This document shows positions 1,601 through 45,202 of a stretch of DNA of 64,000 nt, in pieces; the first letter of the stretch is position 1, and each line of letters opens with the position of its first letter. Location of the stretch: NCBI RefSeq assembly GCF_003790525.1, contig NZ_CP033633.1; one strand, written 5' to 3'. Source of the DNA: Escherichia coli (GTDB lineage: Bacteria; Pseudomonadota; Gammaproteobacteria; Enterobacterales; Enterobacteriaceae). The notes beneath the pieces are model-generated. The model searched no databases. It was given only the letters and a program-made list of their open reading frames with translations, and was not told the DNA's origin. The position numbers and the translations under genes are program-made.

Positions 1601-4600
1601 ATGAATAAGAATATACGAATTTTACAATTTCTGGTCAGTATACTTTATTCTGTGCAGTCTCATTTTTCTAGTGCGCAAACAATACAACTGAATGGTAATG
1701 GTATACCTGAAAGTATAACCAGGAGTATTACAGGTGTTGATGGAAACGCGGCGCTTAATATCAGCGTGCCGTATAAAACAAGTTATACTCAAAATATACT
1801 ATCTGTTGAAAGCAGTATTAACATCAAAGGAGGAACAAGCAATACATCAATCGGTGGTGCAGGTGTCTACGGTGAAAACTTTACGCTAAATAATAATGGT
1901 AGTGTTTGGGGAGGAGATGGATATAATGGTGGAATTGCTGTTAGTGGCAACAAAATATCTATAAACAATTACAGAAATGTATATGGGGGTAATGGTCTTG
2001 GTGGCTCAGGAAGTAGCGGAGGTGCAGGGTTAAGCGGGGATGATATTATAGTTGATAATTACAGAAGTATATACGGAGGTGATGATGTAGGTGGGACAGG
2101 TGGTTCCGGTGTAACCGGTAGCAATATTACAGTGCATAATTCCGGAGGAATATTGGGCGGTAATGGCGTAAACGGTGGTGATGGTATTAATGGTAGTAAT
2201 CTTTTCATTACTAACGACAACATGATATCTGGAGGATATGGAATAAAACAAGGGGGAGATGCTATTTCTGGAAATCAAATCACTTTGAATAATAACGGTA
2301 TTGTTCAGGGGGGATATGGCCCCGACGGTGGTTGCTCTGTTTATGGAGAAGATATCCATATTAATAATCATGGTAATCTTTCAGGATTATATAATAGCCA
2401 AAAAGATGCTTATAATACATCAATAATTTTTTCTGGCGGGTATAATTCATTAGATATTTATTCAGATTCTGTGATTAATGGTGATATTAAACTAGCTAGT
2501 ATACCTGTTAATGGTACAAATGAATTAATTATTAAGAACATCAATAACGCAACAGCAATTAATGGTGGGCTAATGATTGGGAATGGCTCATCTGTTTATC
2601 TGTCAGGCAAGAACTCCATTTTTAACGGAAATATAAGTATTGATGAAGACGCATCTATGAACCTGTCTGTAGGAAATGCTAATGTTCACGCAAATACTAT
2701 TACATTAAAAAGTGATTCATGGCTTAATATAGACACATCAATTAAGAACTGGACTCAGGACTATTACACATTATTGTCGTCAGACACAGGTATCTCGATC
2801 GCTGATAATAGTCACATTGTACAATACAATGTATTACTGACAGAAGGTGCTGAAAGTTATGTTTATACGTCTTTAAATGACGACGATAACAAACTGATAT
2901 CCATGCTGAGATGGAATAATACAAAAGGGATGGGATATGGAACCTTTAATATAGAAAAAGATGCCACTCTGAACATAGGCGTTTCTCTTTCCGATAATCT
3001 TTCACCTTTATTATATGATGGCTGGGACGGCAAAAGTCTGACAAAATCAGGTAATGGTACTCTTATACTTTCTGCAACAAACAATTATACAGGAAATACA
3101 GAGGTTAAATCTGGCGTATTAATTCTTGCTGCACCTGATGCTCTTGGTCGGACTGAGTATTTATATTTATCCCGTGGCGCAGAACTGGATATGAATGGGT
3201 ATCCTCAGACAATAAGCAAACTACTGACGGCTGCAGGCTCTGTGCTGAACATTCATGGCGGAAGTCTGATACTGAATAATGGAGGAGAATCTGCAGGTAC
3301 TATTGCAGGGGATGGTTCTCTGAACATAAATGGGGGAATGCTTGATATAACGGGTAATAATCGTAATTTTTCCGGTGTTTTTACCGTGAATAAGGGGGCT
3401 CATTTGGCTGTATCCACGGCTGATAATCTGGGGACAGCCTTTGTTGATAACTATGGCACATTAACTCTGAACAGTACATCAGCATGGCAGCTTACCAACA
3501 ATATCAGTGGTTATGGTAATGTTCGCAAGACGGGAGCAGGTGCACTGAACATTAGCGATAACGCAAAATGGAGCGGGATGACAGATATTATTCAGGGGAC
3601 AGTGATACTGGGGAACGCAGATTCACCGGTGATGCTCGGCAGTAACCAGGTCATTGTTGAAGAGCAGGGCAAACTCTCCGGGTTTGGGGGCGTTGCAGGA
3701 AATCTGAGCAATAGTGGTATAGTCGATCTCACTACATATATGCCGGGTAATATACTGACTGTCGGAGGGAATTACACTGGCAGAAATGGACTTATTCTCC
3801 TCCAGACAGAAACAGGTGGTGACAATTCGAAAACAGATCGTCTGGTGATTAAAGGTAATGCCAGTGGCCGTACCCGTGTCGCTGTTACTCAGGCCGGTGG
3901 TTCTGGTGCAGAGACACTTAATGGGATTGAAGTGATTCACGTCAGTGGCAATGCTGATAATGCTGAATTCATTCAGACGGAACGTATTACAGCCGGAGCT
4001 TATGATTACATACTGAAACGTGGTCAGGGGATTAACAGCACTAACTGGTATCTGATTAGCAGAAAAGACATTCCTGTACCACAACCTGAAGCTGTACCGG
4101 AAAACCATGATAATAATTTGCGTCCTGAGGCAGGTAGCTATGTTGCCAGTATTGCTGCTGCAAATAATCTGTTTGTAACGAATCTGTATGAACGACAGGG
4201 ACAGGAGTTGTATATCAGCCACATGACAGGAGAAGAAAATGAAGCAGGTATCTGGATGTATAATAAAGGAAAACATAATCGCTGGCGTGACAACAGTAGT
4301 CAGCTGAGAACCCGGGGGAATAGCTACGTTGTGTTAATAGGGGGAGATATAGCTCAGTGGAGCCTGAATGGTACCGATCGCTGGCATACAGGTATGATGG
4401 CTGGCTATGGTCATAATAATAACAGTACGAATGCCCTGAGCACCGGATACCATTCGGAAGGAAGAATGAATGGATACACAGCGGGTCTTTATGCAACATG
4501 GTATGCCAATGATGAAACACACAATGGTTCTTATCTTGATAGCTGGCTGCAATACAGCTGGTTTGATAATCATATAAATGGAGAACGGCTGCCTGCTGAG

Positions 4601-5098
4601 TCATGGAAGTCAAAAGGGTTTACGGTATCTCTGGAAGCAGGATATTCATGGAAGGCTGGAGAGTTTACCGACAATTACAAGGGAAGTCATGAATGGTATG
4701 TTCAGCCGCAGCTTCAGGTTGTCCGGATGAATGTAAAATCAGACAAATATCATGAAAGTAACGGAACCAGTATTGAAAATACCGGTAACGGAAATATTCT
4801 CACCCGCCTGGGAGCAAGAACATGGCTTACCAGCAAAAACGGTAAAAATACGCGGTATGCGGTTCCGTTCAGACCATTTGTGGAGGCACACTGGTTGCAC
4901 AATAGTCGTGTTTTCGGCACCAGTATGAATGGTGTAAGTATATACCAGGATGGTGCGCGTGATATCGGAGAAATAAATGGTGGTGTTGTGGGAATGATAA
5001 CACCAGAAGTAGCATTCCGGGCTGATGCAGGCATTCAACTTGGAGAACATGGATACCATAATACATCTGCCATGTTGAGTGTGGAATATCGTTTCTGA
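1601..5098 (+). CDS. type Va autotransporter (adhesin-like): signal peptide, Gly-rich beta-helix passenger, C-terminal beta-barrel
   Basis: 1165-aa ORF; hydrophobic N-terminal leader; repeated GGNG/GGDG motifs; C-terminal ~280 aa with alternating aromatic pattern ending VEYRF; AT-rich relative to neighbours. Confidence 0.8.
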   Translation: MNKNIRILQFLVSILYSVQSHFSSAQTIQLNGNGIPESITRSITGVDGNAALNISVPYKTSYTQNILSVESSINIKGGTSNTSIGGAGVYGENFTLNNNGSVWGGDGYNGGIAVSGNKISINNYRNVYGGNGLGGSGSSGGAGLSGDDIIVDNYRSIYGGDDVGGTGGSGVTGSNITVHNSGGILGGNGVNGGDGINGSNLFITNDNMISGGYGIKQGGDAISGNQITLNNNGIVQGGYGPDGGCSVYGEDIHINNHGNLSGLYNSQKDAYNTSIIFSGGYNSLDIYSDSVINGDIKLASIPVNGTNELIIKNINNATAINGGLMIGNGSSVYLSGKNSIFNGNISIDEDASMNLSVGNANVHANTITLKSDSWLNIDTSIKNWTQDYYTLLSSDTGISIADNSHIVQYNVLLTEGAESYVYTSLNDDDNKLISMLRWNNTKGMGYGTFNIEKDATLNIGVSLSDNLSPLLYDGWDGKSLTKSGNGTLILSATNNYTGNTEVKSGVLILAAPDALGRTEYLYLSRGAELDMNGYPQTISKLLTAAGSVLNIHGGSLILNNGGESAGTIAGDGSLNINGGMLDITGNNRNFSGVFTVNKGAHLAVSTADNLGTAFVDNYGTLTLNSTSAWQLTNNISGYGNVRKTGAGALNISDNAKWSGMTDIIQGTVILGNADSPVMLGSNQVIVEEQGKLSGFGGVAGNLSNSGIVDLTTYMPGNILTVGGNYTGRNGLILLQTETGGDNSKTDRLVIKGNASGRTRVAVTQAGGSGAETLNGIEVIHVSGNADNAEFIQTERITAGAYDYILKRGQGINSTNWYLISRKDIPVPQPEAVPENHDNNLRPEAGSYVASIAAANNLFVTNLYERQGQELYISHMTGEENEAGIWMYNKGKHNRWRDNSSQLRTRGNSYVVLIGGDIAQWSLNGTDRWHTGMMAGYGHNNNSTNALSTGYHSEGRMNGYTAGLYATWYANDETHNGSYLDSWLQYSWFDNHINGERLPAESWKSKGFTVSLEAGYSWKAGEFTDNYKGSHEWYVQPQLQVVRMNVKSDKYHESNGTSIENTGNGNILTRLGARTWLTSKNGKNTRYAVPFRPFVEAHWLHNSRVFGTSMNGVSIYQDGARDIGEINGGVVGMITPEVAFRADAGIQLGEHGYHNTSAMLSVEYRF

Positions 5099-5244
5099 TG
5101 TGTCTTTACATTATAAATATCCTTCACAAAATATTGTTGATAAGACATGGTTAGGTGGTGAGCTGCCTCGGAAAATATGACGACAGTAATGATTTCTAAG
5201 AGATTTGAAATGCGTTGATAACAAAATCTGAAATATAGGAGTCT

Positions 5245-6030
5245 GTTTAGGAGAGCCTGTTTAGGATTCTGTGTAAATGCCTTTTCTCAGAAGTGACCGT
5301 CCAGGCGGTCACCGAACTCGATAATAAAGCGGCTCATTGCCATTCGCCAGTCCTTCAACGGCATCGTCCATTTCTGGGACGCAGACTGGATTGCCAGCCA
5401 CACCACTTTTTTCACCGAGTCGTCTGTCGGGAACACTTTACGCTTTTTGATCGCATGGCGGATCACGCTGTTTAGCGACTCGATGGCATTCGTCGTATAG
5501 ATCACTTTGCGGATGTCCGTTGGATAAGCGAAGAACGTGGCAAGATTCGGCCAGTTAGCCTGCCAGCTTCGGCTTATCTGAGGATAGCGACTGTCCCAGG
5601 CCGCAGCGAACGCTTCCAGTGCCTGCTGACCTGCCTCTTCCGTGGGAGCCTGATAAATCGCTTTCAGGTCGCGAGTGACGGCTTTGTAGTCCTTCCATGA
5701 CACGAAGCGCAGGCTGTTGCGCACCATATGCACGATGCATAACTGGATGCGGGCCTTCGGATATACTGTGTTGATGGCATCCGGGAAGCCTTTCAGGCCA
5801 TCCACACAGGCGATGAGGATATCGTTCAGACCGCGGTTTTTCAGTTCAGTCAGCACATTGAGCCAGAACTTCGCCCCTTCATTTTCGGCCAGCCACATAC
5901 CCAGCAGTTCTTTCTGACCTTCGATATTGATGCCCAGTGCCAGGAACACCGATTTGTTGATGACGCGACTGTCCTGCCGAACTTTCAGGACGATACAGTC
6001 AAGATAAACAATTGATAAACAGCATCCAGT
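5245..6030 (-). mobile_element. IS256-family element fragment, copy 1 (transposase 3' two-thirds, 5287-~6000; N-terminal part replaced)
   Basis: ORF 5287-6114 encodes ...ALGINIEGQKELLGMW...LIACVDGLKGFPDAI...CIVHMVRNSLRFVSWKDYKAV... typical of IS256/mutator transposases; same sequence recurs at 10491 and 57069. Confidence 0.7.
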
Positions 6031-6112
6031 GTAAGCGTACAGCCTGAACCGTCTGGTCAGAATCTGACGAATTAGACAAAGTGATGTCCACCAAATAAGT
6101 GAAGTGCGCCCC
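6031..6112 (+). mobile_element. IS66-family left terminal fragment (same as left end of complete copy at 11269)
   Basis: gtaagcgtacagcctgaaccgtctggtcagaatctgacgaattagacaaagtg... shared with 11269-11337, then diverges. Confidence 0.5.
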
Positions 6113-6147
6113 AATAGTTAGACACCAGATCTGTAACTGAGGAGCGT

Positions 6148-6456
6148 ATGAGCAAATTTTCATTAGAATTCAAAAGGGAAGTATCAGAAAAATACCTGGA
6201 AGGTGAGCTGAGTTTGAAGTCTGTTGGAAAAATGTACAATATTGACCCCAGCACGGTAAGGAAATGGGCTTATGTTTACCGTAAGCACGGATTAAAAACA
6301 CTGACTGGGCAAAAAAGACGTTATGACGATAACTTCAGATTGAATGTGGTCAGAGATGTTATTGATAATTCTCTTTCTATAAGGGAAGCTGCAGTGAAGT
6401 ATGGGATCCCTGCTTTTAACACCATATCCAAATGGATTAAAAAATACAGTGAGTGA
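6148..6456 (+). CDS. HTH-domain transposase OrfA-like protein of a truncated IS (element cut by IS629)
   Basis: 102-aa ORF with helix-turn-helix-like segments; ends 3 bp from IS629 terminus; assignment by general resemblance only. Confidence 0.35.
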   Translation: MSKFSLEFKREVSEKYLEGELSLKSVGKMYNIDPSTVRKWAYVYRKHGLKTLTGQKRRYDDNFRLNVVRDVIDNSLSIREAAVKYGIPAFNTISKWIKKYSE

Positions 6457-6495
6457 ACCGCCCCGGGTTTCCTGGAGAGTGTTTTATCTGTGAAC

Positions 6496-7386
6496 TCAGG
6501 CTGCCAGATCATCGTTTCCGATGGAAGCATAATAAGCTTTTTCTGCTTCTGCCGGTGGGATATGGCCCAGCCTTTCCAGCAATCGTCGATTGTTATACCA
6601 GTCCACCCACGTGAGTGTGGCCAGCTCCACTTCTGTCCGGTTTTTCCAGCTCTTACGGTGTATTACCTCCGCTTTGTAAAGGCCATTGATGCTCTCCGCC
6701 ATCGCGTTGTCATACGAGTCACCAGTACTTCCTGTTGATGCCAGTAATCCGGCTTCCTTAAGCCGCTGTGTGTAGGCCAGCGATACATACTGAGAACCTT
6801 TATCACTGTGATGGACTGTGCCGGACGGTCGACGGGCCCATAACGCCTGCTCCAGAGCATCCAGCACGAATGTCGTTTCCATAGACGATGAGACCCGCCA
6901 CCCCACGATGTATCCGGCAAACACATCAATGATGAACGCCACATAGACGACCCCCTGCCATGTGCTGACGTAAGTAAAATCAGCCACCCACAACTGGTCA
7001 GGACGTTCTGCCACAAACTGACGGTTTACGCGGTCGCCTGCGGCAACGGCTTTCCGGCTGACGGTAGTGCGGACCTTTTTACCCCGGAGAACACCGGCAA
7101 GTCCCATAACCGCCATGAGGCGCGCCACTGTACATCTGGCTACCCTGATTCCTTCCCGTAACAACTGACGCCAGACTTTACGCACACCATATACCTGATG
7201 ATTCCCATCGTATACGCGCAGTATCTCTTTCTTCAGCCAGTCATCGCGCTGCGCACGGGCACTGCGTTTATAAGGATGATGTCGCTGTTGCTGACAGTGG
7301 TAATACGTTGACGGGGCAATATGTAGTTCACTGCATACCGGTCCGACCCCGTACAGCTTACGCAGCTTATCCAGCAGTGGCATCAC
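6496..7386 (-). CDS. IS629 transposase OrfB
   Basis: 296-aa ORF; DDE integrase core (HSDKGSQY...[15 protein letters not shown]); overlaps orfA as in IS3 family. Confidence 0.85.
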
Positions 7387-28169: not shown

Positions 28170-28559
28170 GTTCACAGATAAAACACTCTCCAGGAAACCC
28201 GGGGCGGTTCAAACACCCTTTCTTCATCCATCCTGCGCGCTCCATCTGATAATGTTCTGACAGGTAAAAATCAAATTCTGTATGATTTTTGTGTTATCGA
28301 TTTATGATAATATCAGATATTTTTTCATTACTTATGATTAAAATCATATCTAATATGAATTTATGTGTATTGCTTAATTATCATATCACCTGCCCGTTTC
28401 CCGCCGCGCAGATCCGGTTTCCGGCTGAAGTGGATCCAGACCTGATTTGTTGCTGAGTATCGGTAAAAGTGCGGCTTATAAGCTATTCTGAAACATGGCA
28501 AGTGAATCTGGGCTGTATAATTCCGGCAAGTGTCATCTGTATTTAAAGGACGTGTGAGT

Positions 28560-29408: not shown

Positions 29409-30389
29409 TATTAGCTCCTTCTGATGCCATTCTATTTCAGGAAGGAGTGTCCGTTAAACCCAGGCTACCTCATAGTTCATTTTCTGTTGATGCGCTGAAG
29501 ATCATTTCATTCAAAATACTGACATCTTTCATAAAGACCTCCATTTTATGTCGGGGAAAAATAAAGCACAGATAAACCATATTTTCACATTTAATTTACA
29601 AATTAGTGGTATCAGTCACAAATAACTTACAGGTCCGGTAATATCGGTCTGTTAGTGATATTTACTGAAAATGATGGAAAGATATTGATAACGTGGTTGC
29701 CATAACCAATGCTTCAGGGAAGCCGATATGGTTAATGTCATTACAATCGTCGCCACAGTTGCCTGTGTATCCGGATATTTGAAATGGATCTTCCAGAAGC
29801 GGACTCGGGTAGTATCTTCATGGTTTGGCTTTCAGCAGATCTGTGACTCTGCTATTTATTGATGAATATGACCTTTACAATTCCAGTTATTGTTCTGATT
29901 GCAATAATCACTTCATCACAATAATCCACCATTTTTTGTGATTATCTGGCAATAATTTTCTTTTCTGCTCCAGAGATCCGAAAACTCCTGGTTCCGGATC
30001 CGCGGATCCTTCGCTGCCGCCCGCTGGTCCGCTTTCACAGGATGTGGTGTCCCGCTCCGCTGACATGACACTGTATGTTGTGTTTCTTCCCGTGTTCCCG
30101 AGCCAGTCATCAGCGGCAGAAAAGATCGCTTCGCTTATTCACTGATCCTGATTCACTTCCGGAAAATCCTGAATCCGATAAAAATCGGATCATAGAAAAA
30201 CAGTCATCCTGTAATTTATCATGGTTACTACATTGCAGGTTATTATTGTCATGATTACTTTTCAGGTCAGTTATTGATGGTGGTGTTAATAATAGCTGGA
30301 TAACAATATTCCGTTGCCGGAGGCATGTTATAGCGTAATACTGGTGTATACTTAATGGTGTACAGAGAGTATGTAAGATGAGGTGCATT

Positions 30390-30915
<526 letters not shown>

Positions 30916-31725
30916 ATGTCAGGCTCCGTTATACACAGCCAGTCTGCAGCCATGGTACCGGCAGTGTATTCTGCCGGACAGTCTGCACAACTTCCTGTTG
31001 CCATTGATTATCCGGCAGCTCTGGCACTCCGCCAGATGTCGATGGTTCATGATGAACTGCCGAAATATCTGCTGGCTCCCGAGGTGAGTGCCCTGCTTCA
31101 TTATGTCCCGGATCTGCGCCGCAAGATGCTGCTGGCCACTCTGTGGAACACCGGCGCGCGTATTAATGAAGCACTAGCGCTGACGCGGGGGGATTTTTCG
31201 CTCACGCCTCCGTATCCGTTTGTGCAGCTGGCCACTCTGAAGCAGCGGACAGAAAAAGCCGCCAGGAGGGCAGGAAGGATGCCCGCCGGTCAGCAGACTC
31301 ACCGTCTGGTTCCGCTCTCCGACGCCTGGTACGTCAGCCAGCTGCAGACGATGGTGGCCACACTGAAAATCCCCATGGAACGGCGTAATAAACGAACAGG
31401 CAGGACAGAGAAAGCGCGGATCTGGGAAGTGACGGACAGAACGGTCAGGACCTGGATTGGGGAGGCGGTTGCCGCCGCTGCTGCTGACGGTGTGACGTTC
31501 TCTGTTCCGGTCACACCACATACGTTCCGCCATTCCTATGCGATGCACATGCTGTATGCCGGTATACCGCTGAAAGTTCTGCAAAGCCTGATGGGACATA
31601 AGTCCATCAGTTCAACGGAAGTCTACACGAAGGTTTTTGCGCTGGATGTGGCTGCCCGGCACCGGGTGCAGTTTGCGATGCCTGAGTCCGATGCGGTCAC
31701 AATGCTGAAAAACAGACATGTATAA
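30916..31725 (+). CDS. resD: ResD tyrosine site-specific recombinase (multimer resolvase)
   Basis: 269-aa ORF directly after ccdB as in F; C-terminal HxxR...Y catalytic region (HTFRHSYAMHMLYAG...STEVYTKV). Confidence 0.8.
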   Translation: MSGSVIHSQSAAMVPAVYSAGQSAQLPVAIDYPAALALRQMSMVHDELPKYLLAPEVSALLHYVPDLRRKMLLATLWNTGARINEALALTRGDFSLTPPYPFVQLATLKQRTEKAARRAGRMPAGQQTHRLVPLSDAWYVSQLQTMVATLKIPMERRNKRTGRTEKARIWEVTDRTVRTWIGEAVAAAAADGVTFSVPVTPHTFRHSYAMHMLYAGIPLKVLQSLMGHKSISSTEVYTKVFALDVAARHRVQFAMPESDAVTMLKNRHV

Positions 31726-31862
31726 TAAGTCACAATTATGAATTGTGATTTCTTCTATAAAAAAGAGACCACTGCAATATGTGATCTCTTGTATTATTTC
31801 ATAATTGGGTGATGCTGCCAACTTACTGATTTAGTGTATGATGGTGTTTTTGAGGTGCTCCA

Positions 31863-32138
31863 GTGGCTTCTGTTTCTATCAGCTGTCCCTCCTGTTCAGC
31901 TACTGACGGGGTGGTGCGTAACGGCAAAAGCACCGCCGGACATCAGCGCTATCTCTGCTCTCACTGCCGTAAAACATGGCAACTGCAGTTCACTTACACC
32001 GCTTCTCAACCCGGTACGCACCAGAAAATCATTGATATGGCCATGAATGGCGTTGGATGCCGGGCAACCGCCCGCATTATGGGCGTTGGCCTCAACACGA
32101 TTTTCCGCCATTTAAAAAACTCAGGCCGCAGTCGGTAA
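31863..32138 (+). CDS. insA: IS1 InsA
   Basis: Near-identical to other insA copies. Confidence 0.9.
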
Positions 32139-32560
32139 CCTCGCGCATACAGCCGGGCAGTGACGTCATCGTCTGTGCGGAAATGGACGAACAGTGGGGC
32201 TATGTCGGGGCTAAATCGCGCCAGCGCTGGCTGTTTTACGCGTATGACAGGCTCCGGAAGACGGTTGTTGCGCACGTATTCGGTGAACGCACGATGGCGA
32301 CGCTGGGGCGTCTTATGAGCCTGCTGTCACCCTTTGACGTGGTGATATGGATGACGGATGGCTGGCCGCTGTATGAATCCCGCCTGAAGGGAAAGCTGCA
32401 CGTAATCAGCAAGCGATATACGCAGCGAATTGAGCGGCATAACCTGAATCTGAGGCAGCACCTGGCACGGCTGGGACGGAAGTCGCTGTCGTTCTCAAAA
32501 TCGGTGGAGCTGCATGACAAAGTCATCGGGCATTATCTGAACATAAAACACTATCAATAA
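32057..32560 (+). CDS. insB: IS1 InsB
   Basis: Near-identical to other insB copies. Confidence 0.85.
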
Positions 32561-32570
32561 GTTGGAGTCA

Positions 32571-33482
32571 TTACCAACTATTACTGTCCAGAATCTCCAC
32601 GGCTGAAATATATAGCGGAGAAACTCCACTGCCTTCAGGAAAACGGACAATGACATCATGATTATTACTGGACATCGTATAACCAGCCTCAACATAATTC
32701 CCTGTCTCAGAAATAACGCCATCTTCCTGGATTTCGGGATTAGACCGAACTGGAGTATTCATCTGACCCACACTTAATACCAGGTCCGGTAGATTTGGTG
32801 ATACAGGGGCACTGTAAACATCTTTAATATTGGTTCCCGGACGACTCCGGTCCGGAACTGGAACGGCATCCACTACTGGCACTGTCATCGGAATACCTCC
32901 GATAATAGCCATATATTGTGTACCATTCTGCATAAGGTCCGTCAGACGATATTTTACCGGTACATTATTACCCGCTGCTGGTAACTGGCTGGCAGGGATA
33001 TCCGTTACCTGCTCCAGTTGCTGTGTAACCATAAGACGAATAATTTTTTGCTCATTTCCGGAAGCAGGCTCCAGACGGGCAAAAGAAACAGCAGCCGGGC
33101 GAGACGGTTCTGGCAAACCACCACGTAAACCATTTTCAAGAACTGTTCGTGCAGCGGAAACTTTCTCGTTTCCCCAGGGGCTATGCACACTGACAGACCA
33201 TCCCGACCAGTCTCCCTCTTCAAGTTCCTTATCAAGAATAATCCGGCGAATAATTCCAGGAAAAAGAACACTTTGTACAAGTGCGATACCTTGTGGGCTG
33301 TAATCCCCCCATCCCGGAGGCATGGATGGAGCGAGACCTGATGAGCCTCCGGGTTTCACATCACCGCCCGGAATTCGTCCTGTTGACGGCCACACAACCA
33401 TTGTGTCCCCGTAATCAATACCTTCTGTCGGTACACTACCTTCATTATCACTCATAGAAAACCTCTTTGACTTTAAAAACAA
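32571..33482 (-). pseudogene. unknown Gly/Pro-rich protein, C-terminus cut by IS1 (stop codon supplied by the IS1 end)
   Basis: 303-aa ORF MSDNEGSVPTEGIDYGDTMVVWPSTGRIPGGDVKPGG...; reading frame runs into the IS1 terminus. Confidence 0.4.
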
Positions 33483-33669
33483 TCAATTAAAATTAAATAC
33501 TGTACATATAACCACTGGTTTTATGTACAGATCAAAAATTACGCCGCTGTGTTTTCTCTGTCAAGACTGTGGATTTCAATTTTTGTGAAAACGATCAAAA
33601 AACAGGCACTCACACCACGTGCTATTCTCGCCTGATACCACAAAAAACTGCACAAGCATTACTGGTCAG

Positions 33670-34129
33670 GACGGCAGGAAGAATGCCCGCCGGCCAGCAG
33701 ACTCACCGGCTGGTTCCGCTCTCGGACTCCTGGTACGTCAGCCAGCTGCAGACGATAGTGGCCACACTGAAAATCCCCATGGAACGGCGTAATAAACGAA
33801 CAGGCAGGACAGAGAAAGCGCGGATCTGGGAAGTGACGGACAGAACGGTCAGTACCTGGATTGGGGAAGCGGTTGCCGCCGCTGCCGCTGATGGTGTGAC
33901 GTTCTCTGCCCCGGTCACGCCACATACGTTCCGCCATTCCTATACGATGCACATGCTGTATGCCGGTATACCGCTGAAGGTCCTGCAGAGCCTGATGGGG
34001 CATAAGTCCATCAGCTCAACGGAAGTCTACACGAAGGTGTTTGCGCTGGATGTGGCTGCCCGGCACCGGGTGCAGTTTTCGATGCCTGAGTCCGATGCGG
34101 TCACAATGCTGAAAAACAGACACGCATAA
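33670..34129 (+). pseudogene. partial second copy of resD (3' ~60%), diverged
   Basis: Translation TAGRMPAGQQTHRLVPLSD...HTFRHSYTMHMLYAG... collinear with resD residues ~115-269. Confidence 0.7.
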
Positions 34130-34265
34130 TTCATAAATCATAATTATGAATTGTGATTTATTCTGTAAAAAAGAGACCACTGCAATATGTGATCTCTTGT
34201 ATGCAAGGGGGCTTAAACAGTATGAATTCACAAGTGTGATTTCATAAGTAATAACTTTTTGATTA

Positions 34266-34541
34266 TTATGTTAGTGTTTTTAAGTATTGCTCAAGGGCTA
34301 CTCTGACGATGGCACTTACATTTTTTGGATCTTTACCATTGCGTTTATTCCTCAATGCCAGATCTTCTATTGTGACAAGCATGCTTTCACCAAGAGAGAT
34401 TGTCGTCCGACATTGTTTTTCTGGTTCGGTTTTTTCCGGCGCGCCGTATGGTTTATCCGCAAGGCGCTGAGCCAGAGCCTCTGCTTGTTCTACCGTAACT
34501 GCAGCTCTGTTTAATGCTTGCTGGCTGGGTTTCTTCACCAT
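34266..34541 (-). CDS. small ribbon-helix-helix centromere-binding protein (ParB/ParG-like) of a type Ib partition system
   Basis: 91-aa ORF immediately downstream of and overlapping the ParA-like ATPase gene. Confidence 0.5.
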   Translation of the reverse strand: MVKKPSQQALNRAAVTVEQAEALAQRLADKPYGAPEKTEPEKQCRTTISLGESMLVTIEDLALRNKRNGKDPKNVSAIVRVALEQYLKTLT

Positions 34542-35179
34542 GGGCCAAATACCTCATTCATTAAATGTTCAATTTCTGCTTTGGCTGCTGTATTGTTCGT
34601 TTCTACTACACCGGTGCCGTTGCTCATGCAATCGCGATAGACTTTTCTGAAACAAATAACTGAATCCAGAACTTGAATTGTTGGGAATTCTTCAAGATAT
34701 TCAAGGAATTCTTTTCTCTCATTTCCCCTCAAAACCGGATTGGTTGTTGCCATACTTTGTAAACAATAAACCTTAAGTTCCGGGTTAAGGTTACGCATTG
34801 CGTCTATCTGTTGTTCTAGTTCTGTAAGAGTATCCAGATCTGGTTGAGAACACTGTAGTGGCGCAATTATTTGATGTGCGACAACTCCACTCGTTATGAA
34901 TTCCTTTGAGTTTCTTCCTGCGACATCCACTATTACATCATCGAACTTTTCATTCAGAGCCTGTAGTGTTTGTGTCAGATTATCAAATTTCTCAACAAGA
35001 GTTATTGCTGGTAAAAGTCCTGCAGCTTCTCGTTCCGCATGATGTTTTGCGGCTGTTCGTTGTAGATCTCCGTTTAACAGGCAGACTTCCCTTCCTTTAT
35101 TTGCGAGAGCAATAGCCAGGTTTGATGCAATGGTAGTTTTCCCTGAACCACCTTTGTTCCCACCAACTACAGTAATCAT
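34535..35179 (-). CDS. ParA/ParF-type partition ATPase (deviant Walker A)
   Basis: MITVVGGNKGGSGKTTIASNLAIALA...; 214 aa; divergent from parM. Confidence 0.8.
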   Translation of the reverse strand: MITVVGGNKGGSGKTTIASNLAIALANKGREVCLLNGDLQRTAAKHHAEREAAGLLPAITLVEKFDNLTQTLQALNEKFDDVIVDVAGRNSKEFITSGVVAHQIIAPLQCSQPDLDTLTELEQQIDAMRNLNPELKVYCLQSMATTNPVLRGNERKEFLEYLEEFPTIQVLDSVICFRKVYRDCMSNGTGVVETNNTAAKAEIEHLMNEVFGPW

Positions 35180-35407
35180 TGCAACCTCATAAATGTGATG
35201 TGTGAAGTATGATGATATTTTGACACGGTAACCTGAGGTGTCAATATGCGTTCATATTTATGAAGTATGAAACATGAAGTGTTTCATATGATGTAATAAA
35301 TAATACTTGTGTTTTGTGATTTCATAACTATGATAGTACTCAAATTGAGTATTACCTTGCAACCAGAAACAGTGATTTACTCAGATTGAGTATTTAAGGG
35401 GCTATAG
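35180..35407. promoter_or_regulatory. intergenic centromere/promoter region shared by the two divergent partition operons
   Basis: AT-rich 228-bp region with short repeats (tgatgtg, atgaagt, attgagtat x2) between divergent par genes. Confidence 0.45.
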
Positions 35408-36379
35408 ATGAACGTATACTGCGATGATGGTTCAACAACAATCAAGTTGGCATGGAATGACAATGGGAAAATCAGTAAGTCGTTGTCGCAAAACTCATTT
35501 CGTCATGGATGGAAGGTTGACGGGTTAGGGATTCGCCAGACATTTAACTATGAACTGGATGGTAAAAAATACACGTATGATGAAGTTAGCAACCAATCTA
35601 TTCTTACGACTCATATTGAGTATCAATATACGGATGTTAACCTGTTAGCTGTGCATCACGCTTTACTGAATAGTGGATTAGTGCCTCAGCCTGTATCATT
35701 GACTGTGACTTTGCCTATCAGTGAGTTCTACACGAAAGAGTGTCAAAAAAATGAACTCAACATTCAGCGTAAAATTGAGAATTTAATGAGGCCGATTCGT
35801 CTTAATAAAGGCGATGTTTTCACCATTGAACACGTTGATGTGATGCCTGAATCATTGCCAGCTGTGTTTTCTCGTCTGGTCATGGATAAAGTTGGTCAGT
35901 TCGAAAAATCGCTGGTAGTTGATATTGGCGGCACTACGCTTGATGTTGGTGTTATCGTTGGTCAATTTGACTCTGTAAGTGCCATTCATGGTAATTCTGG
36001 CATTGGTGTGTCTTCAGTTACGAAAGCTGCAATGAGTGCATTGCGCATGGCATCCAGTGATACCAGTTTCCTCGTTGCAGATGAATTGATTAAACGTCGT
36101 AATGACCCGGACTTTGTTCGGCAGGTTATAAATGACGAAACAAAAACTGATCTGGTCCTTAATACCATTGAGGGGGCTATTGCCAGTCTGGGGGAGCAAG
36201 TAGTCAATGAGCTCGGTGATTTTCATCATGTGAATCGTGTTTATGTTGTCGGTGGTGGGGCACCGTTGATCTATGATTCGATAAAAACGGCATGGCACCA
36301 TCTTGGGCAAAAAGTAGTGATGATGGAGTCGCCACAGACAGCACTGGTTGAAGCTATCGCGGCTTTCAAAGAGGAGTAA
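35408..36379 (+). CDS. parM: ParM (StbA) actin-like plasmid segregation ATPase
   Basis: 323 aa; MNVYCDDGSTTIKLAWNDNGK...FNYELDGKKYTYDEV... collinear with R1 ParM. Confidence 0.85.
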   Translation: MNVYCDDGSTTIKLAWNDNGKISKSLSQNSFRHGWKVDGLGIRQTFNYELDGKKYTYDEVSNQSILTTHIEYQYTDVNLLAVHHALLNSGLVPQPVSLTVTLPISEFYTKECQKNELNIQRKIENLMRPIRLNKGDVFTIEHVDVMPESLPAVFSRLVMDKVGQFEKSLVVDIGGTTLDVGVIVGQFDSVSAIHGNSGIGVSSVTKAAMSALRMASSDTSFLVADELIKRRNDPDFVRQVINDETKTDLVLNTIEGAIASLGEQVVNELGDFHHVNRVYVVGGGAPLIYDSIKTAWHHLGQKVVMMESPQTALVEAIAAFKEE

Positions 36380-36383
36380 TATT

Positions 36384-36776
36384 GTGGACGATGAACGGAA
36401 AAGGAAAAAATTCACACTTTATCTGCATCCGGAAAAAGCTGCAGACTTTCAAACTTTGGAAGCGATAGAGTCCGTTCCGCGTTCTGAGCGTGGTGAGCTG
36501 TTCCGGAATGCATTTATTTCTGGAATGGCGTTACACCAACTTGATCCTCGCCTGCCTGTATTGCTGACTGCCATTTTGAGCGAGGAGTTTTCAGCAGATC
36601 AGGTTGTAACCTTACTCAGTCAGACGACTGGATGGAAGCCTTCTCAGGCCGATATCAGAGCTGTGTTGACTGAACTCGGTGCTTCGCAATCTGCTGAAAA
36701 AATGCCTCCTTCTGCTACTGATTCGGTGCAGGAGGCAATGAATGATGTGCGCCTTAAAATGCAAAAATTATTCTGA
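36384..36776 (+). CDS. parR: ParR-like centromere-binding adaptor (GTG start)
   Basis: ~130-aa ORF directly after parM, SD gaggag 8 nt upstream of GTG 36384. Confidence 0.55.
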   Translation: MDDERKRKKFTLYLHPEKAADFQTLEAIESVPRSERGELFRNAFISGMALHQLDPRLPVLLTAILSEEFSADQVVTLLSQTTGWKPSQADIRAVLTELGASQSAEKMPPSATDSVQEAMNDVRLKMQKLF

Positions 36777-36780
36777 TATA

Positions 36781-38052
36781 TCAGAATGAAGCAATGGGGA
36801 TCTCAGTCCATTGTGTTGTATACGAAGGCGAGAGCATTTCCCGTTTCATTTGCCATTCAGGGGCGGTTCCTCGCCCCGCAAACCACACTTTCCCTTTTCC
36901 CGACTGGTTCAGTTCATCGAGTGTTTTCATTAACTTTTCACTGTTTTTACGGGGCTGGATTTCATCAAATAATCCCGGCTGCGCTATACCCGATGGTGTG
37001 AAATCAGCCAGCATGACTCCTGCCTTCATATAGCGGTACCCTTCACGCCAGACATGGTTTAAGGCTCTGCATGCGGCGGCAATAATGTCCCGGCTGTCCT
37101 GTGTGGGCAATGGAAGCTTTTCCACAGCGGCATTGCTGTAACAGGGTTCTTTTACTGCAAAGGGGGATGTCCGTACAAATGTCGTCACCTGCCGGCAATA
37201 CTGACGCTCCCCACGTAGTTTCTCTGCGGCCCGCTCTGCATACTGAACAACAGCCTGGTGCATGGCATCTTTGTCTGTGATTCGTTCACCAAAACTGCGA
37301 CTACAGACAATCTGCTGTTTTGCCGGTGGTGCTTCTTCCAGGGATATGCAGGACTCGCCGTTGAGTTCGCGTACCGTACGCTCAAGAATGACGCTGAAGT
37401 TTTTCCGGATGAATGCCGTGTTAGCCTGCGCCAGCTGCAGTGCTGTGTTAATACCCAGCGCATTCAGCTTTTCCGTCAGTCTGCGTCCTACTCCCCAGAC
37501 CTCACCAACTGGCTGCAGTCCCAGTAGCTTCAAGATCCGATTACGGTTTTCTGCCGTCAGCGCGACCACACCGGAAAACTGTGGCCATTGCTTTGTTGCC
37601 CACTGTGCACTTTTAGCCAGCGTTTTTGTAGGCGCAATGCCCACCCCCATGGTGAGTCCTGTCCAGCTCTTTACCTGTTCCCTGAGCTGATGACCAAAAA
37701 ACTCCGGAGAGATGCAATGATTTATCCCCCGCAAATCAATAAACATTTCATCAATTGAGTAGGGCTCAACTGCGGGAGAAAGCGACTCCAGAACAGCCAT
37801 GACCCGTTGGCTCATGCTGTGGTACAGCGCATAATTGCTGGAAAATACATGTATTTTCTTCTCCAGGCGCATCTGTCTCACCTGAAACCAGGGCTGCCCC
37901 ATTCTGATGCCAAGGGCTTTTGCCTCCGGGCTGCGCGCGATCACACAGCCATCGTTATTGCTGAGTACGATGACCGGTTCGTTGCGAAGGTCCGGGCGGA
38001 AAACTTTTTCACATGAGGCGTAGAAACTGTTGATATCAGCCAGTGCAAACAT
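36781..38052 (-). CDS. Y-family DNA polymerase V catalytic subunit (UmuC/MucB/ImpB-like)
   Basis: 423 aa; MFALADINSFYASCEKVFRPDLRNEPVIVLSNNDGCVIARS... N-terminus. Confidence 0.85.
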   Translation of the reverse strand: MFALADINSFYASCEKVFRPDLRNEPVIVLSNNDGCVIARSPEAKALGIRMGQPWFQVRQMRLEKKIHVFSSNYALYHSMSQRVMAVLESLSPAVEPYSIDEMFIDLRGINHCISPEFFGHQLREQVKSWTGLTMGVGIAPTKTLAKSAQWATKQWPQFSGVVALTAENRNRILKLLGLQPVGEVWGVGRRLTEKLNALGINTALQLAQANTAFIRKNFSVILERTVRELNGESCISLEEAPPAKQQIVCSRSFGERITDKDAMHQAVVQYAERAAEKLRGERQYCRQVTTFVRTSPFAVKEPCYSNAAVEKLPLPTQDSRDIIAAACRALNHVWREGYRYMKAGVMLADFTPSGIAQPGLFDEIQPRKNSEKLMKTLDELNQSGKGKVWFAGRGTAPEWQMKREMLSPSYTTQWTEIPIASF

Positions 38053-38489
38053 CAGCGTAACTCCCGCGTCCTGTGTATCACGTGAGTGACAACACCAAAA
38101 ATACAGATGTTTTCCGGATACAGTGTGCGGAACTCCGGGCTGTCTGAAACCGGCTCCAGTGCCGGGCGTGGGCGCAACAGCAGTCGTTTGACGGTGAACT
38201 CACCGTCGATCTCAGCGATAACGATGTCCCCGTGTTGTGGTTTTTCGGCCCTGTCCACTACCAGCAGATCACCATTCTGCACGCCAGCCTGGTTCATCGA
38301 TTCACCGCTGGCGCGCAGAAAGAAGGTGGCTGCAGGTCTGCTGATGCAATAGCTGTTCAGATCCAGTTCCTGCTCAGCATAATCAGTGGCAGGCGAAGGA
38401 AAACCGGCCTGGCAACGATCGGCAAACAACGGTCGCACGTAACTGTCATCGCCTGAAGGGTCAGCCGGACGGTGATAAACGGTACTCAT
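38052..38489 (-). CDS. UmuD/MucA/ImpA-like self-cleaving accessory subunit
   Basis: 145 aa; ...ASGESMNQAGVQNGDLLVVDRA...GDIVIAEIDGEFTVKRL (Ser/Lys peptidase fold). Confidence 0.8.
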   Translation of the reverse strand: MSTVYHRPADPSGDDSYVRPLFADRCQAGFPSPATDYAEQELDLNSYCISRPAATFFLRASGESMNQAGVQNGDLLVVDRAEKPQHGDIVIAEIDGEFTVKRLLLRPRPALEPVSDSPEFRTLYPENICIFGVVTHVIHRTRELR

Positions 38490-38734
38490 GCTGCAGGCAG
38501 CCAGCTGTCGTCCTGCCAGATTTCTTCCAGCAGAGACAGGATACGTTCTTTATCCTTGTCGTTGCGGGCTCCTGTGACAGATACAGACGGGGCGCTGCCC
38601 TGGTCTATACGCAGCCAGATTTCCGGGTAGTGTGGTTTCAGACGTTGTTCGATTTCATTCTGTAGCGCCTGAAGTGTGCCTGATTTGAGGTTTTTTGTGC
38701 TCTGGCGGTCGAAAAGAATTTCAATGCGGATCAT
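38486..38734 (-). CDS. DinI-family protein (ImpC-like) heading the umuDC-like operon
   Basis: 82-aa ORF from internal ATG (MIRIEILFDRQ...ILSLLEEIWQDDSWLPAA), DinI-like acidic C-terminus. Confidence 0.6.
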   Translation of the reverse strand: MIRIEILFDRQSTKNLKSGTLQALQNEIEQRLKPHYPEIWLRIDQGSAPSVSVTGARNDKDKERILSLLEEIWQDDSWLPAA

Positions 38735-43193: not shown

Positions 43194-45151
43194 ATGTCAG
43201 TTACAGAGTCTAAGACAAAAACGGAGCGTAAATCCAGCCGTAAACCTGCAAAAACGCAGGAAACTGCACTGTCTGCCCTGCTGGCGCAGACGGAGGAAGT
43301 GAGCGTGCCGCTGGATTCACTGATTAAATCACCGCTGAATGTGCGCACGGTGCCGTATTCTGCGGAGTCCGTCAGTGAACTGGCTGATTCCATTAAGGGA
43401 GTCGGCCTGCTGCAGAATCTGGTTGTTCATGCCCTGCCAGGTGACCGTTACGGTGTCGCCGCAGGTGGTCGCCGACTGGCAGCACTCAACATGCTGGCAG
43501 AGCGTGACATCATTCAGGCTGACTGGCCTGTCCGCGTGAAAATTATTCCGCAGGAGCTGGCGACGGCTGCATCGATGACCGAGAACGGTCATCGTCGGGA
43601 TATGCACCCTGCCGAACAGATTGCCGGATTCCGCGCAATGGCGCAGGAAGGCAAAACACCTGCGCAAATCGGTGATTTGCTGGGCTATTCACCCCGCCAT
43701 GTCCAGCGAATGCTGAAACTGGCTGACCTTGCGCCTGTCATCCTCGATGCGCTGGCAGAAGACCGCATCACCACCGAACACTGTCAGGCGCTGGCGCTGG
43801 AGAACGACACCGCGCGTCAGGTGCAGGTGTTTGAAGCCGCCTGCCAGTCAGGATGGGGTGGAAAACCGGATGTGCGGGTTATCCGCAACCTGATTACGGA
43901 AAGTGAAGTGGCGGTGAAGGACAACACTAAATTTCGCTTTGTGGGGGCTGATGCTTTCTCGCCTGACGAACTGCGCACCGATTTGTTCAGCGATGACGGG
44001 GACGGTTATGTCGACCGCGTGGCGCTCGATGCCGCCCTGCTGGAAAAACTCCAGGTTGTTGCAGAGTCCCTTCGGGAAGCAGAAGGCTGGGAATGGTGCG
44101 CCGGGCGCATGGAGCCAGTCGGTGAGTGCCGTGAGGATGCCGGAACATACCGCTGTCTGCCGGAGCCGGAAGCGGTGCTGACGGAGGCGGAAGAAGAACG
44201 CCTGAACGAACTGATGACGCGTTACGACGCGCTGGAAAACCAGTGTGAGGAATCCGACCTGCTGGAAGCAGAAATGAAGCTGATGCGCTGCATGGCGAAG
44301 GTCAGAGCGTGGACGCCGGAGATACGTGCCGGAAGCGGTGTGGTGGTGTCCTGGCGTTATGGCAACGTATGTGTCCAGCGTGGTGTGCAGTTGCGCAGTG
44401 AAGATGACGCGACTGACGACGCTGACCGCACGGAACAGGTGCAGGAGAAAGCGTCAGTGGAGGAAATCAGTCTGCCACTGCTGACGAAAATGTCTTCCGA
44501 ACGCACGCTGGCAGTCCAGGCGGCACTGATGCAGCAACCGGACAAATCCCTGACACTGCTGGCATGGACGCTCTGCCTGAATGTGTTTGGCAGCGGAGCG
44601 TACAGTAAACCAGCACAAATCAGCCTGGAATGTAAACATTATTCGCTGACCAGCGATGCGCCGTCAGGGAAGGAAGGTGCCGCATTCATGGCGCTGATGG
44701 CAGAAAAAGCCCGTCTTGCGGCCCTGTACCGGAGGGATGGTCACGGGACATGACGACATTCCTTTCACTCAGTCAGGAGGTGCTGTTATCCCTGCTCAGT
44801 TTCTGCACCGCGTGCAGCATCCACGGCGTTCAGACCCGCGAGTGTGGTCACACGTCACGCAGCCCGCTGGACACGCTGGAGAGCGCCATCGGTTTTCACA
44901 TGCGCGACTGGTGGCAGCCGACAAAAGCAAACTTCTTCGGACACCTGAAAAAGCCGCAGATTATCGCAGCCCTGAATGAGGCAGGACTGTCCGGTGCCGC
45001 ACGGGACGCGGAGAAGATGAAGAAAGGCGATGCGGCTGAACATGCAGAGTTCCATATGAAAGACAACCGCTGGGTGCCTGGCTGGATGTGTGCACCACGT
45101 CCACAGACGGATACCACTGAACGCACTGATAACCTGGCTGATGCCGCCTGA
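43194..45151 (+). pseudogene. ParB-like nuclease-domain protein (leading-region ParB/YubM-like) split by a frameshift near 44750
   Basis: ORFs 43194-44753 (519 aa, ParB/Srx-like motif ...VAAGGRRLAAL...) and 44750-45151 (133 aa) together span the ~650 aa expected. Confidence 0.65.
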
Positions 45152-45202
45152 TGAACAACCACACCGCCCCGCCGGAGACGGGGCGGCAGCAAGGGAGATA
45201 CC

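Follow-up and report, generated by a model that had tools for sequence, protein, structure and literature searches.

Could two partition systems of different types share one divergent intergenic region on a plasmid, and would such an arrangement be new? This question is raised by a stretch of 64 kb from Escherichia coli contig NZ_CP033633.1 (RefSeq assembly GCF_003790525.1), hereafter called the window. Within it, an earlier reading made from the letters alone (the sequence-only reading) had noticed a type I (ParA-like) and a type II (ParM/ParR) system facing away from a common AT-rich region. Plasmid pB171's double par locus is reportedly built in this way, with par1 (parM/parR), par2 (parA/parB) and the sites parC1 and parC2, as worked out by Ebersbach and Gerdes in 2001 and by Ringgaard et al. 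in 2007. Judged from its sequence, the window almost certainly carries an intact pB171-type double partition locus; its carrier is a conjugative plasmid of type IncK2/Z from avian E. coli. The locus, already characterised as pB171 par1/par2, is thus genuine but unremarkable, and the plasmid lineage in which it is found here is a common one.

Identity of the double partition locus

Four open reading frames (ORFs) occupy the coordinates given in the sequence-only reading, parA and parB on the minus strand and parM and parR on the plus strand, diverging from 228 bp. Their products, with lengths in amino acids (aa), are as follows.

34266-34541, minus strand: parB (par2), 91-aa ribbon-helix-helix (RHH) protein, putative centromere binder
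34535-35179, minus strand: parA (par2), 214-aa type Ib Walker-type partition ATPase
35408-36379, plus strand: parM, or stbA (par1), 323-aa actin-like ATPase
36384-36776, plus strand: parR, or stbB (par1), 130-aa centromere-binding adaptor by family assignment, GTG start

The identification as the pB171 locus starts from two proteins. ParR is identical at 127 of 130 residues, over the full 130 aa, to PDB entry 2JD3, relative to which it has the substitutions F10Y, A104V and Q127K, and 2JD3 is the ParR of pB171 (PMC3074162). The exact ParA sequence of the window bears the UniRef name Q0H055, the accession listed for pB171 ParA in a 2026 paper in Nucleic Acids Research (NAR; PMC13245405). As proxies for pB171 we used eight loci whose encoded ParR has exactly the 2JD3 sequence. 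In all eight, ccdAB and an integrase gene are followed by parB and parA on the opposite strand, by parM and parR, and by an imp/umu operon, again on the opposite strand. Compared with these loci, the window differs at 0 of 214 residues in ParA, 1 of 91 in ParB, 3-4 of 323 in ParM and 3 of 130 in ParR, while the two non-coding regions are 3-4% different. Since loci with a 2JD3-identical ParR nearly match the window in all proteins and in the non-coding regions as well, the window is best regarded as containing the pB171-type locus itself. The resemblance to pB171 par1/par2 proposed from the letters alone is therefore borne out by the gene order, by ParR and 2JD3, by the name of ParA and by the proxy loci.

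The individual proteins agree with this assignment. In ParA, residues 9-15 form a deviant Walker A motif, KGGSGKT, as expected from the pattern KGGxGK[ST] in a protein of about 200-230 aa, and the protein matches the Pfam families AAA_31, MipZ, CbiA and ParA (2.5e-13 and weaker). Its Pfam and PDB matches begin at residues 2-8, that is, without an N-terminal DNA-binding extension. The NCBIfam model ParA_partition is matched at 6.7e-34, which lies under the equivalog cut-off, and the nearest solved structures are ParF and other ParA proteins, at only about 1e-7. The parB gene follows directly downstream, its start overlapping the parA stop by 7 nt (ATGGTGA). ParB matches Pfam RHH_1 over residues 45-88 (21.7 bits for a cut-off of 20.5, E = 1.8e-4) and has no sequence match in the PDB; the ParB of pB171 is classed as RHH-ParB in PMC13245405. 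ParM contains StbA_N (9e-65) and the ParM C-terminal domain (4e-44); its match to the R1 ParM structures has a value of 2.4e-76, and 43% of 291 aligned residues are identical. ParR belongs to Plasmid_stab_B (1.3e-29). The longest ORF would start parR at TTG 36348; we place the start at GTG 36384 because the RefSeq annotation and residue 1 of the 130-aa chain of 2JD3 agree on it.

How common is this locus? Among the 72,556 plasmids of PLSDB, 981 cover at least 80% of it, and the sampled full-length matches are 98-100% identical; in the assembly collection, about 6000 blocks list exactly the ParR sequence of pB171. The window itself is 99.9-100% identical to IncK2/Z conjugative plasmids of chicken E. 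coli, for example pE32-3 and p135-1, and the replicon types of the plasmids examined include IncFIC as well as IncK2/Z. A literature search for a double par locus on IncK plasmids returned no useful description. In RefSeq, the genes are labelled 'AAA family ATPase' or 'MipZ', 'hypothetical protein' or 'CopG regulator', and 'plasmid partitioning/stability family protein', and the cis sites are unannotated; the practical value of the present analysis therefore lies in annotating both the genes and the cis sites.

The cis regions parC1 and parC2

Between the first position of parA (35179, minus strand) and that of parM (35408, plus strand) lie exactly 228 bp, which contain both types of repeat described below. 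Here and in the 136 bp after parB, the content of guanine plus cytosine (GC) is low, 51% being the value for the whole window. The following features were identified in the shared region.

35180-35407, no strand: parC1, shared putative centromere and promoter region, 228 bp, 32% GC
35194-35216, 35251-35292 and 35315-35334, either orientation: ParB-type hexamer arrays
35371-35376: lone hexamer between the ParR boxes
35337-35353, plus strand: putative ParR box 1, TACTCAAATTGAGTATT, with the 10-bp core ATTGAGTATT at 35344-35353
35378-35394, plus strand: putative ParR box 2, TACTCAGATTGAGTATT, with the 10-bp core ATTGAGTATT at 35385-35394
35244-35217, minus strand: predicted parAB promoter, TTGACA, 16-nt spacer, TG-extended CAAAAT, 10/12 match

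The hexamer was defined as T[AG]TGA[AT] (T-R-T-G-A-W) on either strand, and its expected number was taken from 1000 dinucleotide-preserving shuffles. In parC1 there are 11 hexamers for 2.2 ± 1.3 in the shuffled sequences, none of the 1000 being as high, and they are mostly spaced by 7-8 bp. The whole window has 147 hexamers, about 0.34 per 150 bp, and a sliding scan over its 64 kb places the top two peaks at parC1 and at the parC2 spot downstream of parB (11 and 9 per 150 bp). The pB171 sites parC1 and parC2 reportedly have 17 and 18 six-bp ParB repeats.

The ParR boxes are 17-mers of the form TACTCA(A/G)ATTGAGTATT, each with a palindrome and with exactly the same 10-bp core. They are 41 bp apart, and box 2, which is invariant across all close relatives, ends 14 bp before the parM start. 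A pair of 10-bp direct repeats lying upstream of parM has been published for ParR (PMC9426499, in a passage citing Ringgaard et al.), and the two exact copies of ATTGAGTATT directly upstream of parM agree with the pB171 repeats as they are given there. The short repeats first noticed in this AT-rich region thus resolve into an excess of hexamers over shuffles and a pair of 17-mers. The predicted parAB promoter is the best sigma-70 match in the region and lies between two hexamer arrays, a position that, as a prediction only, would suit autoregulation by ParB.

A second cis region was found after parB, with the features listed here.

34130-34265, no strand: parC2-like region downstream of parB, 29% GC
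34130-34157: hexamer cluster A, four hexamers
34188-34193: single hexamer
34221-34246: hexamer cluster B, four hexamers
34165-34198, minus strand: probable intrinsic terminator of parAB, 10-bp stem AAGAGAUCAC/GUGGUCUCUU, 8-nt loop, then UUUUUU

It had been suggested from the letters alone that the AT-rich stretch downstream of the small RHH gene may hold a second centromere. This fits the par2 layout parC1-parA-parB-parC2, as it appears from the constructs in PMC4270457, together with the local enrichment: 9 hexamers were counted in 34125-34265 for 1.1 ± 1.0 in the shuffled sequences, and 0 of 1000 shuffles were as high. The region is 96-97% conserved in the proxy loci. An RNA fold of 34140-34270 (minus strand) contains the hairpin, with a minimum free energy of -25.2 kcal/mol and z = -3.6; a simple terminator scan did not call it, and the hairpin is probably the parAB terminator. 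The Rfam scan of 33000-38000 gave no RNA families.

Several points weigh against the identification of an intact pB171-type locus and should be considered together. The assignment of ParB to the RHH family is marginal (21.7 versus 20.5 bits), and the NCBIfam search gave no model matching ParB or ParR. The promoter scan gave no convincing sigma-70 promoter for parM above threshold; by eye, a weaker candidate can be seen just upstream of ParR box 1 (TTGTGT, 16 nt, TATGAT ending at 35334). The identity with pB171 rests on the crystallised ParR, a cited UniProt accession and proxy loci, not on an alignment with the pB171 record, and the published repeat layout of pB171 is taken from citing papers. 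Finally, the distal 73 bp of parC2 (34130-34202) are duplicated behind the second integrase and occur in about 580 plasmids without par genes; therefore, this part is not exclusive to the partition locus.

Could 34130-34265, then, be something other than a second centromere, at least in part? It might consist of the 3' flank of a tyrosine recombinase gene and the parAB terminator, with incidental hexamers. A ResD-type tyrosine recombinase gene occurs twice in the window, once intact behind ccdAB (30916-31725, plus strand) and once as a 5'-truncated copy convergent with parB (33569/33667-34129, plus strand). The two copies share 536 bp at 94% identity (31263-31794 and 33667-34202), reaching 73 bp past the stop, so that 34100-34202 matches the flank of the other copy at this identity. 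The duplicated segment covers hexamer cluster A and the terminator-like hairpin, which stands between the two hexamer clusters; cluster B, however, lies outside it. The excess of hexamers, which share their consensus and 7-8 bp spacing with those of parC1, also argues against this reading, as does the published place of parC2 in par2 (PMC4270457). In Enterobacter ludwigii NZ_CP134673.1, moreover, a hexamer cluster abuts parB despite an unrelated integrase flank. A view of cluster A as a general feature of resD flanks is not supported either, the resD flank of the F plasmid having no similarity to the 34130-34265 stretch beyond the coding sequence.

The presence of the segment elsewhere may be connected with the neighbouring colicin genes. 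In the flank-only plasmids examined (L006/H60, p135-1 and this window), the flank is followed by the ColBM colicin module, whereas in loci without colicin genes a single integrase gene is followed directly by parC2 and parB. This suggests that the junction of integrase gene, parC2 and parB, originally continuous, was broken up by an insertion accompanied by partial duplication. Because this is the simplest reading, the occurrence of the segment elsewhere is no argument against a role with ParB. Taking both sides together, the view that 34130-34265 is not, or not wholly, a second centromere is unlikely, and we regard the region as a putative parC2.

Some further observations concern the same neighbourhood. 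In related plasmids, the two recombinase copies bracket the ColBM module. In the window, IS1 (31807-32579) adjoins a truncated colicin gene (32571-33482, minus strand; a 303-aa ORF matching Pfam Cloacin/Pyocin_S), and between the integrase flank and IS1 the window lacks the cmi-cma-cbi genes of p135-1 (colicin M and the immunities to colicins M and B). The inverted repeat at 34171-34198 (10-8-10) was considered as rfsF, the target of ResD, for its resemblance to a recombinase core and the ColBM junction right after it. This was rejected, since rfsF of R64 and F lies upstream of ccdAB/resD and those sequences align to 29958-30000 of the window and not to parC2. There, upstream of ccdAB (30378-30915), is an rfsF-like site, GAGATCCGAAAAC..GTT.CGGATC, whose identity to R64 and F at the places where rfsF has been published is 81%. 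The third-highest hexamer density of the window is located in a very AT-rich segment upstream of an acyltransferase gene (28241-28390), with 6 hexamers for 2.2 ± 1.3 and 9 of 1000 shuffles as high; with their irregular spacing, these hexamers are probably there by chance.

Proposed mechanism and linkage of the block

Because of the near-identity to a studied system, the mechanism is expected to be that of pB171; the activities proposed here in binding, regulation and segregation are inferred from the literature on pB171, R1 and ParA proteins. In par1, dimers of ParR would bind both of the boxes with a ATTGAGTATT core that directly precede parM. The resulting complex of ParR and DNA would capture the ends of ATP-ParM filaments, whose growth would push sister plasmids apart, and ParR on its boxes would also repress the par1 promoter. 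In par2, ParB would coat the T-R-T-G-A-W arrays in parC1, upstream of parA, and in parC2, downstream of parB. The ParB complex may then stimulate the ATPase of nucleoid-bound ParA, and gradients or oscillations of ParA would space the plasmids evenly over the nucleoid; ParA oscillation and equal plasmid spacing have been described for pB171. Since the ParB hexamers flank the predicted parAB promoter and extend as far as the ParR boxes, with one copy between these, autoregulation of par2 and an influence on par1 are expected of ParB. The par1 and par2 operons of pB171 are divergently transcribed and cross-regulated, according to PMC11950199.

Is the block held together beyond its close relatives? 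The E. ludwigii copy (L002, locus 2104-7196), the sole clearly diverged one among the sampled megablast matches, is the same block at 73% nucleotide identity, with a ParB 85% identical. It has the order integrase-parB-parA-parM-parR-umuC-umuD and lies on an unrelated replicon (rep_cluster_1444, MOBP), a synteny that points to an old linkage of the block and not to recent transfer. There, the sequence has diverged between the hexamer arrays and the half-sites CTCA/TGAG of the ParR boxes, which are themselves almost unchanged. Among ten close relatives, which are otherwise 99% identical, parC1 varies at 25 of 228 positions. Position 2 of the hexamer (A or G) accounts for five of the nine variable sites within hexamers, whose TGA core hardly varies; in so small a sample, this concentration of variation at position 2 is only suggestive.

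Two neighbouring genes or operons should be mentioned here. A umuDC-like (impCAB-type) operon at 36781-38734 (minus strand), with DinI-like, umuD-like and Y-family polymerase genes, is convergent with parR and ends 4 bp past the parR stop, an adjacency kept in all related loci examined, E. ludwigii included. At 43194-45152 (plus strand), 6.4 kb from the double par locus, collinearity with p135-1 indicates a large gene annotated as 'ParB/RepB/Spo0J family partition protein', between ssb and psiB in the leading region.

We tentatively raise the possibility that the recombinase gene, par2, par1 and the umuDC-like imp genes form an anciently linked maintenance cassette that moves and persists as a block across unrelated replicons (IncK2/Z, IncFIC and the untyped Enterobacter MOBP replicon). 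Its linkage might be selected, and at position 2 of its hexamers an exchange of one purine for the other might be tolerated or favoured, possibly as a way of adjusting partition incompatibility among relatives in the same cell.

A less probable alternative still is that one system is active and the other is a silent passenger or regulator only, i.e., a single partition system plus a relic. Some virulence plasmids do carry incomplete ParA- or ParM-type operons judged non-functional (PMC11950199) and the scan gave no strong parM promoter, but this is very unlikely here, with all four ORFs of full length and 97.7-100% identical to pB171-type proteins, the cis sites of both systems intact and preserved even at the 73% identity of the E. 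ludwigii locus, and the whole block intact in about 981 PLSDB plasmids.

With two active systems as the preferred reading, recognition of the locus predicts that the IncK2/Z plasmid has two segregation systems, in addition to ccdAB and, elsewhere in the window, a gene for a tyrosine recombinase together with an rfsF-like site. This is relevant to the persistence of the plasmid and to partition-mediated incompatibility with plasmids sharing these centromeres.

Comparison with known partition systems

Two partition systems on one replicon, as in the window, are also present, going by titles and references, in R27 with its double partitioning modules, in the Shigella plasmid pINV and in SCP1 with its dual ParABS; in the texts consulted, no description was found in which type I and type II systems of these replicons share one divergent centromere and promoter region.

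The par2 half resembles parFGH of TP228, delta/omega of pSM19035 and the system of the IncI1 plasmids pESBL and R64, each pairing a small RHH protein with a small Walker ATPase that has no DNA-binding domain at its N terminus. Arrays of short repeats are likewise common to the window and these systems, and stand both upstream and downstream in pSM19035 and pESBL. The repeat units are not those of the window: pESBL has octamers, and parH has tetramer boxes. All of these systems are only distant relatives, ParF of TP228 matching the ParA of the window at about 1e-7. The IncI1 system of R64 and pESBL belongs to a different family, R64 ParA being 19% identical and the partner protein without detectable similarity.

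The par1 half is similar to parMRC of R1, with an actin-like ParM, parR downstream and a centromere upstream that overlaps the promoter region. However, R1 ParR needs 11-bp repeats, at minimum two, whereas the window has two 10-bp repeats, and the ParR of the window belongs to the StbB/Plasmid_stab_B family. To our knowledge, no type I system is adjacent to parMRC in R1.

The closest counterpart is the double par locus of pB171, where a type II and a type Ib operon likewise diverge from one shared cis region of about 200 bp, with a second cis site after parB. The two differ in their host replicons: pB171 is a virulence plasmid of enteropathogenic E. coli (EPEC), whereas the locus described here is carried by a conjugative plasmid of type IncK2/Z from avian E. 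coli.

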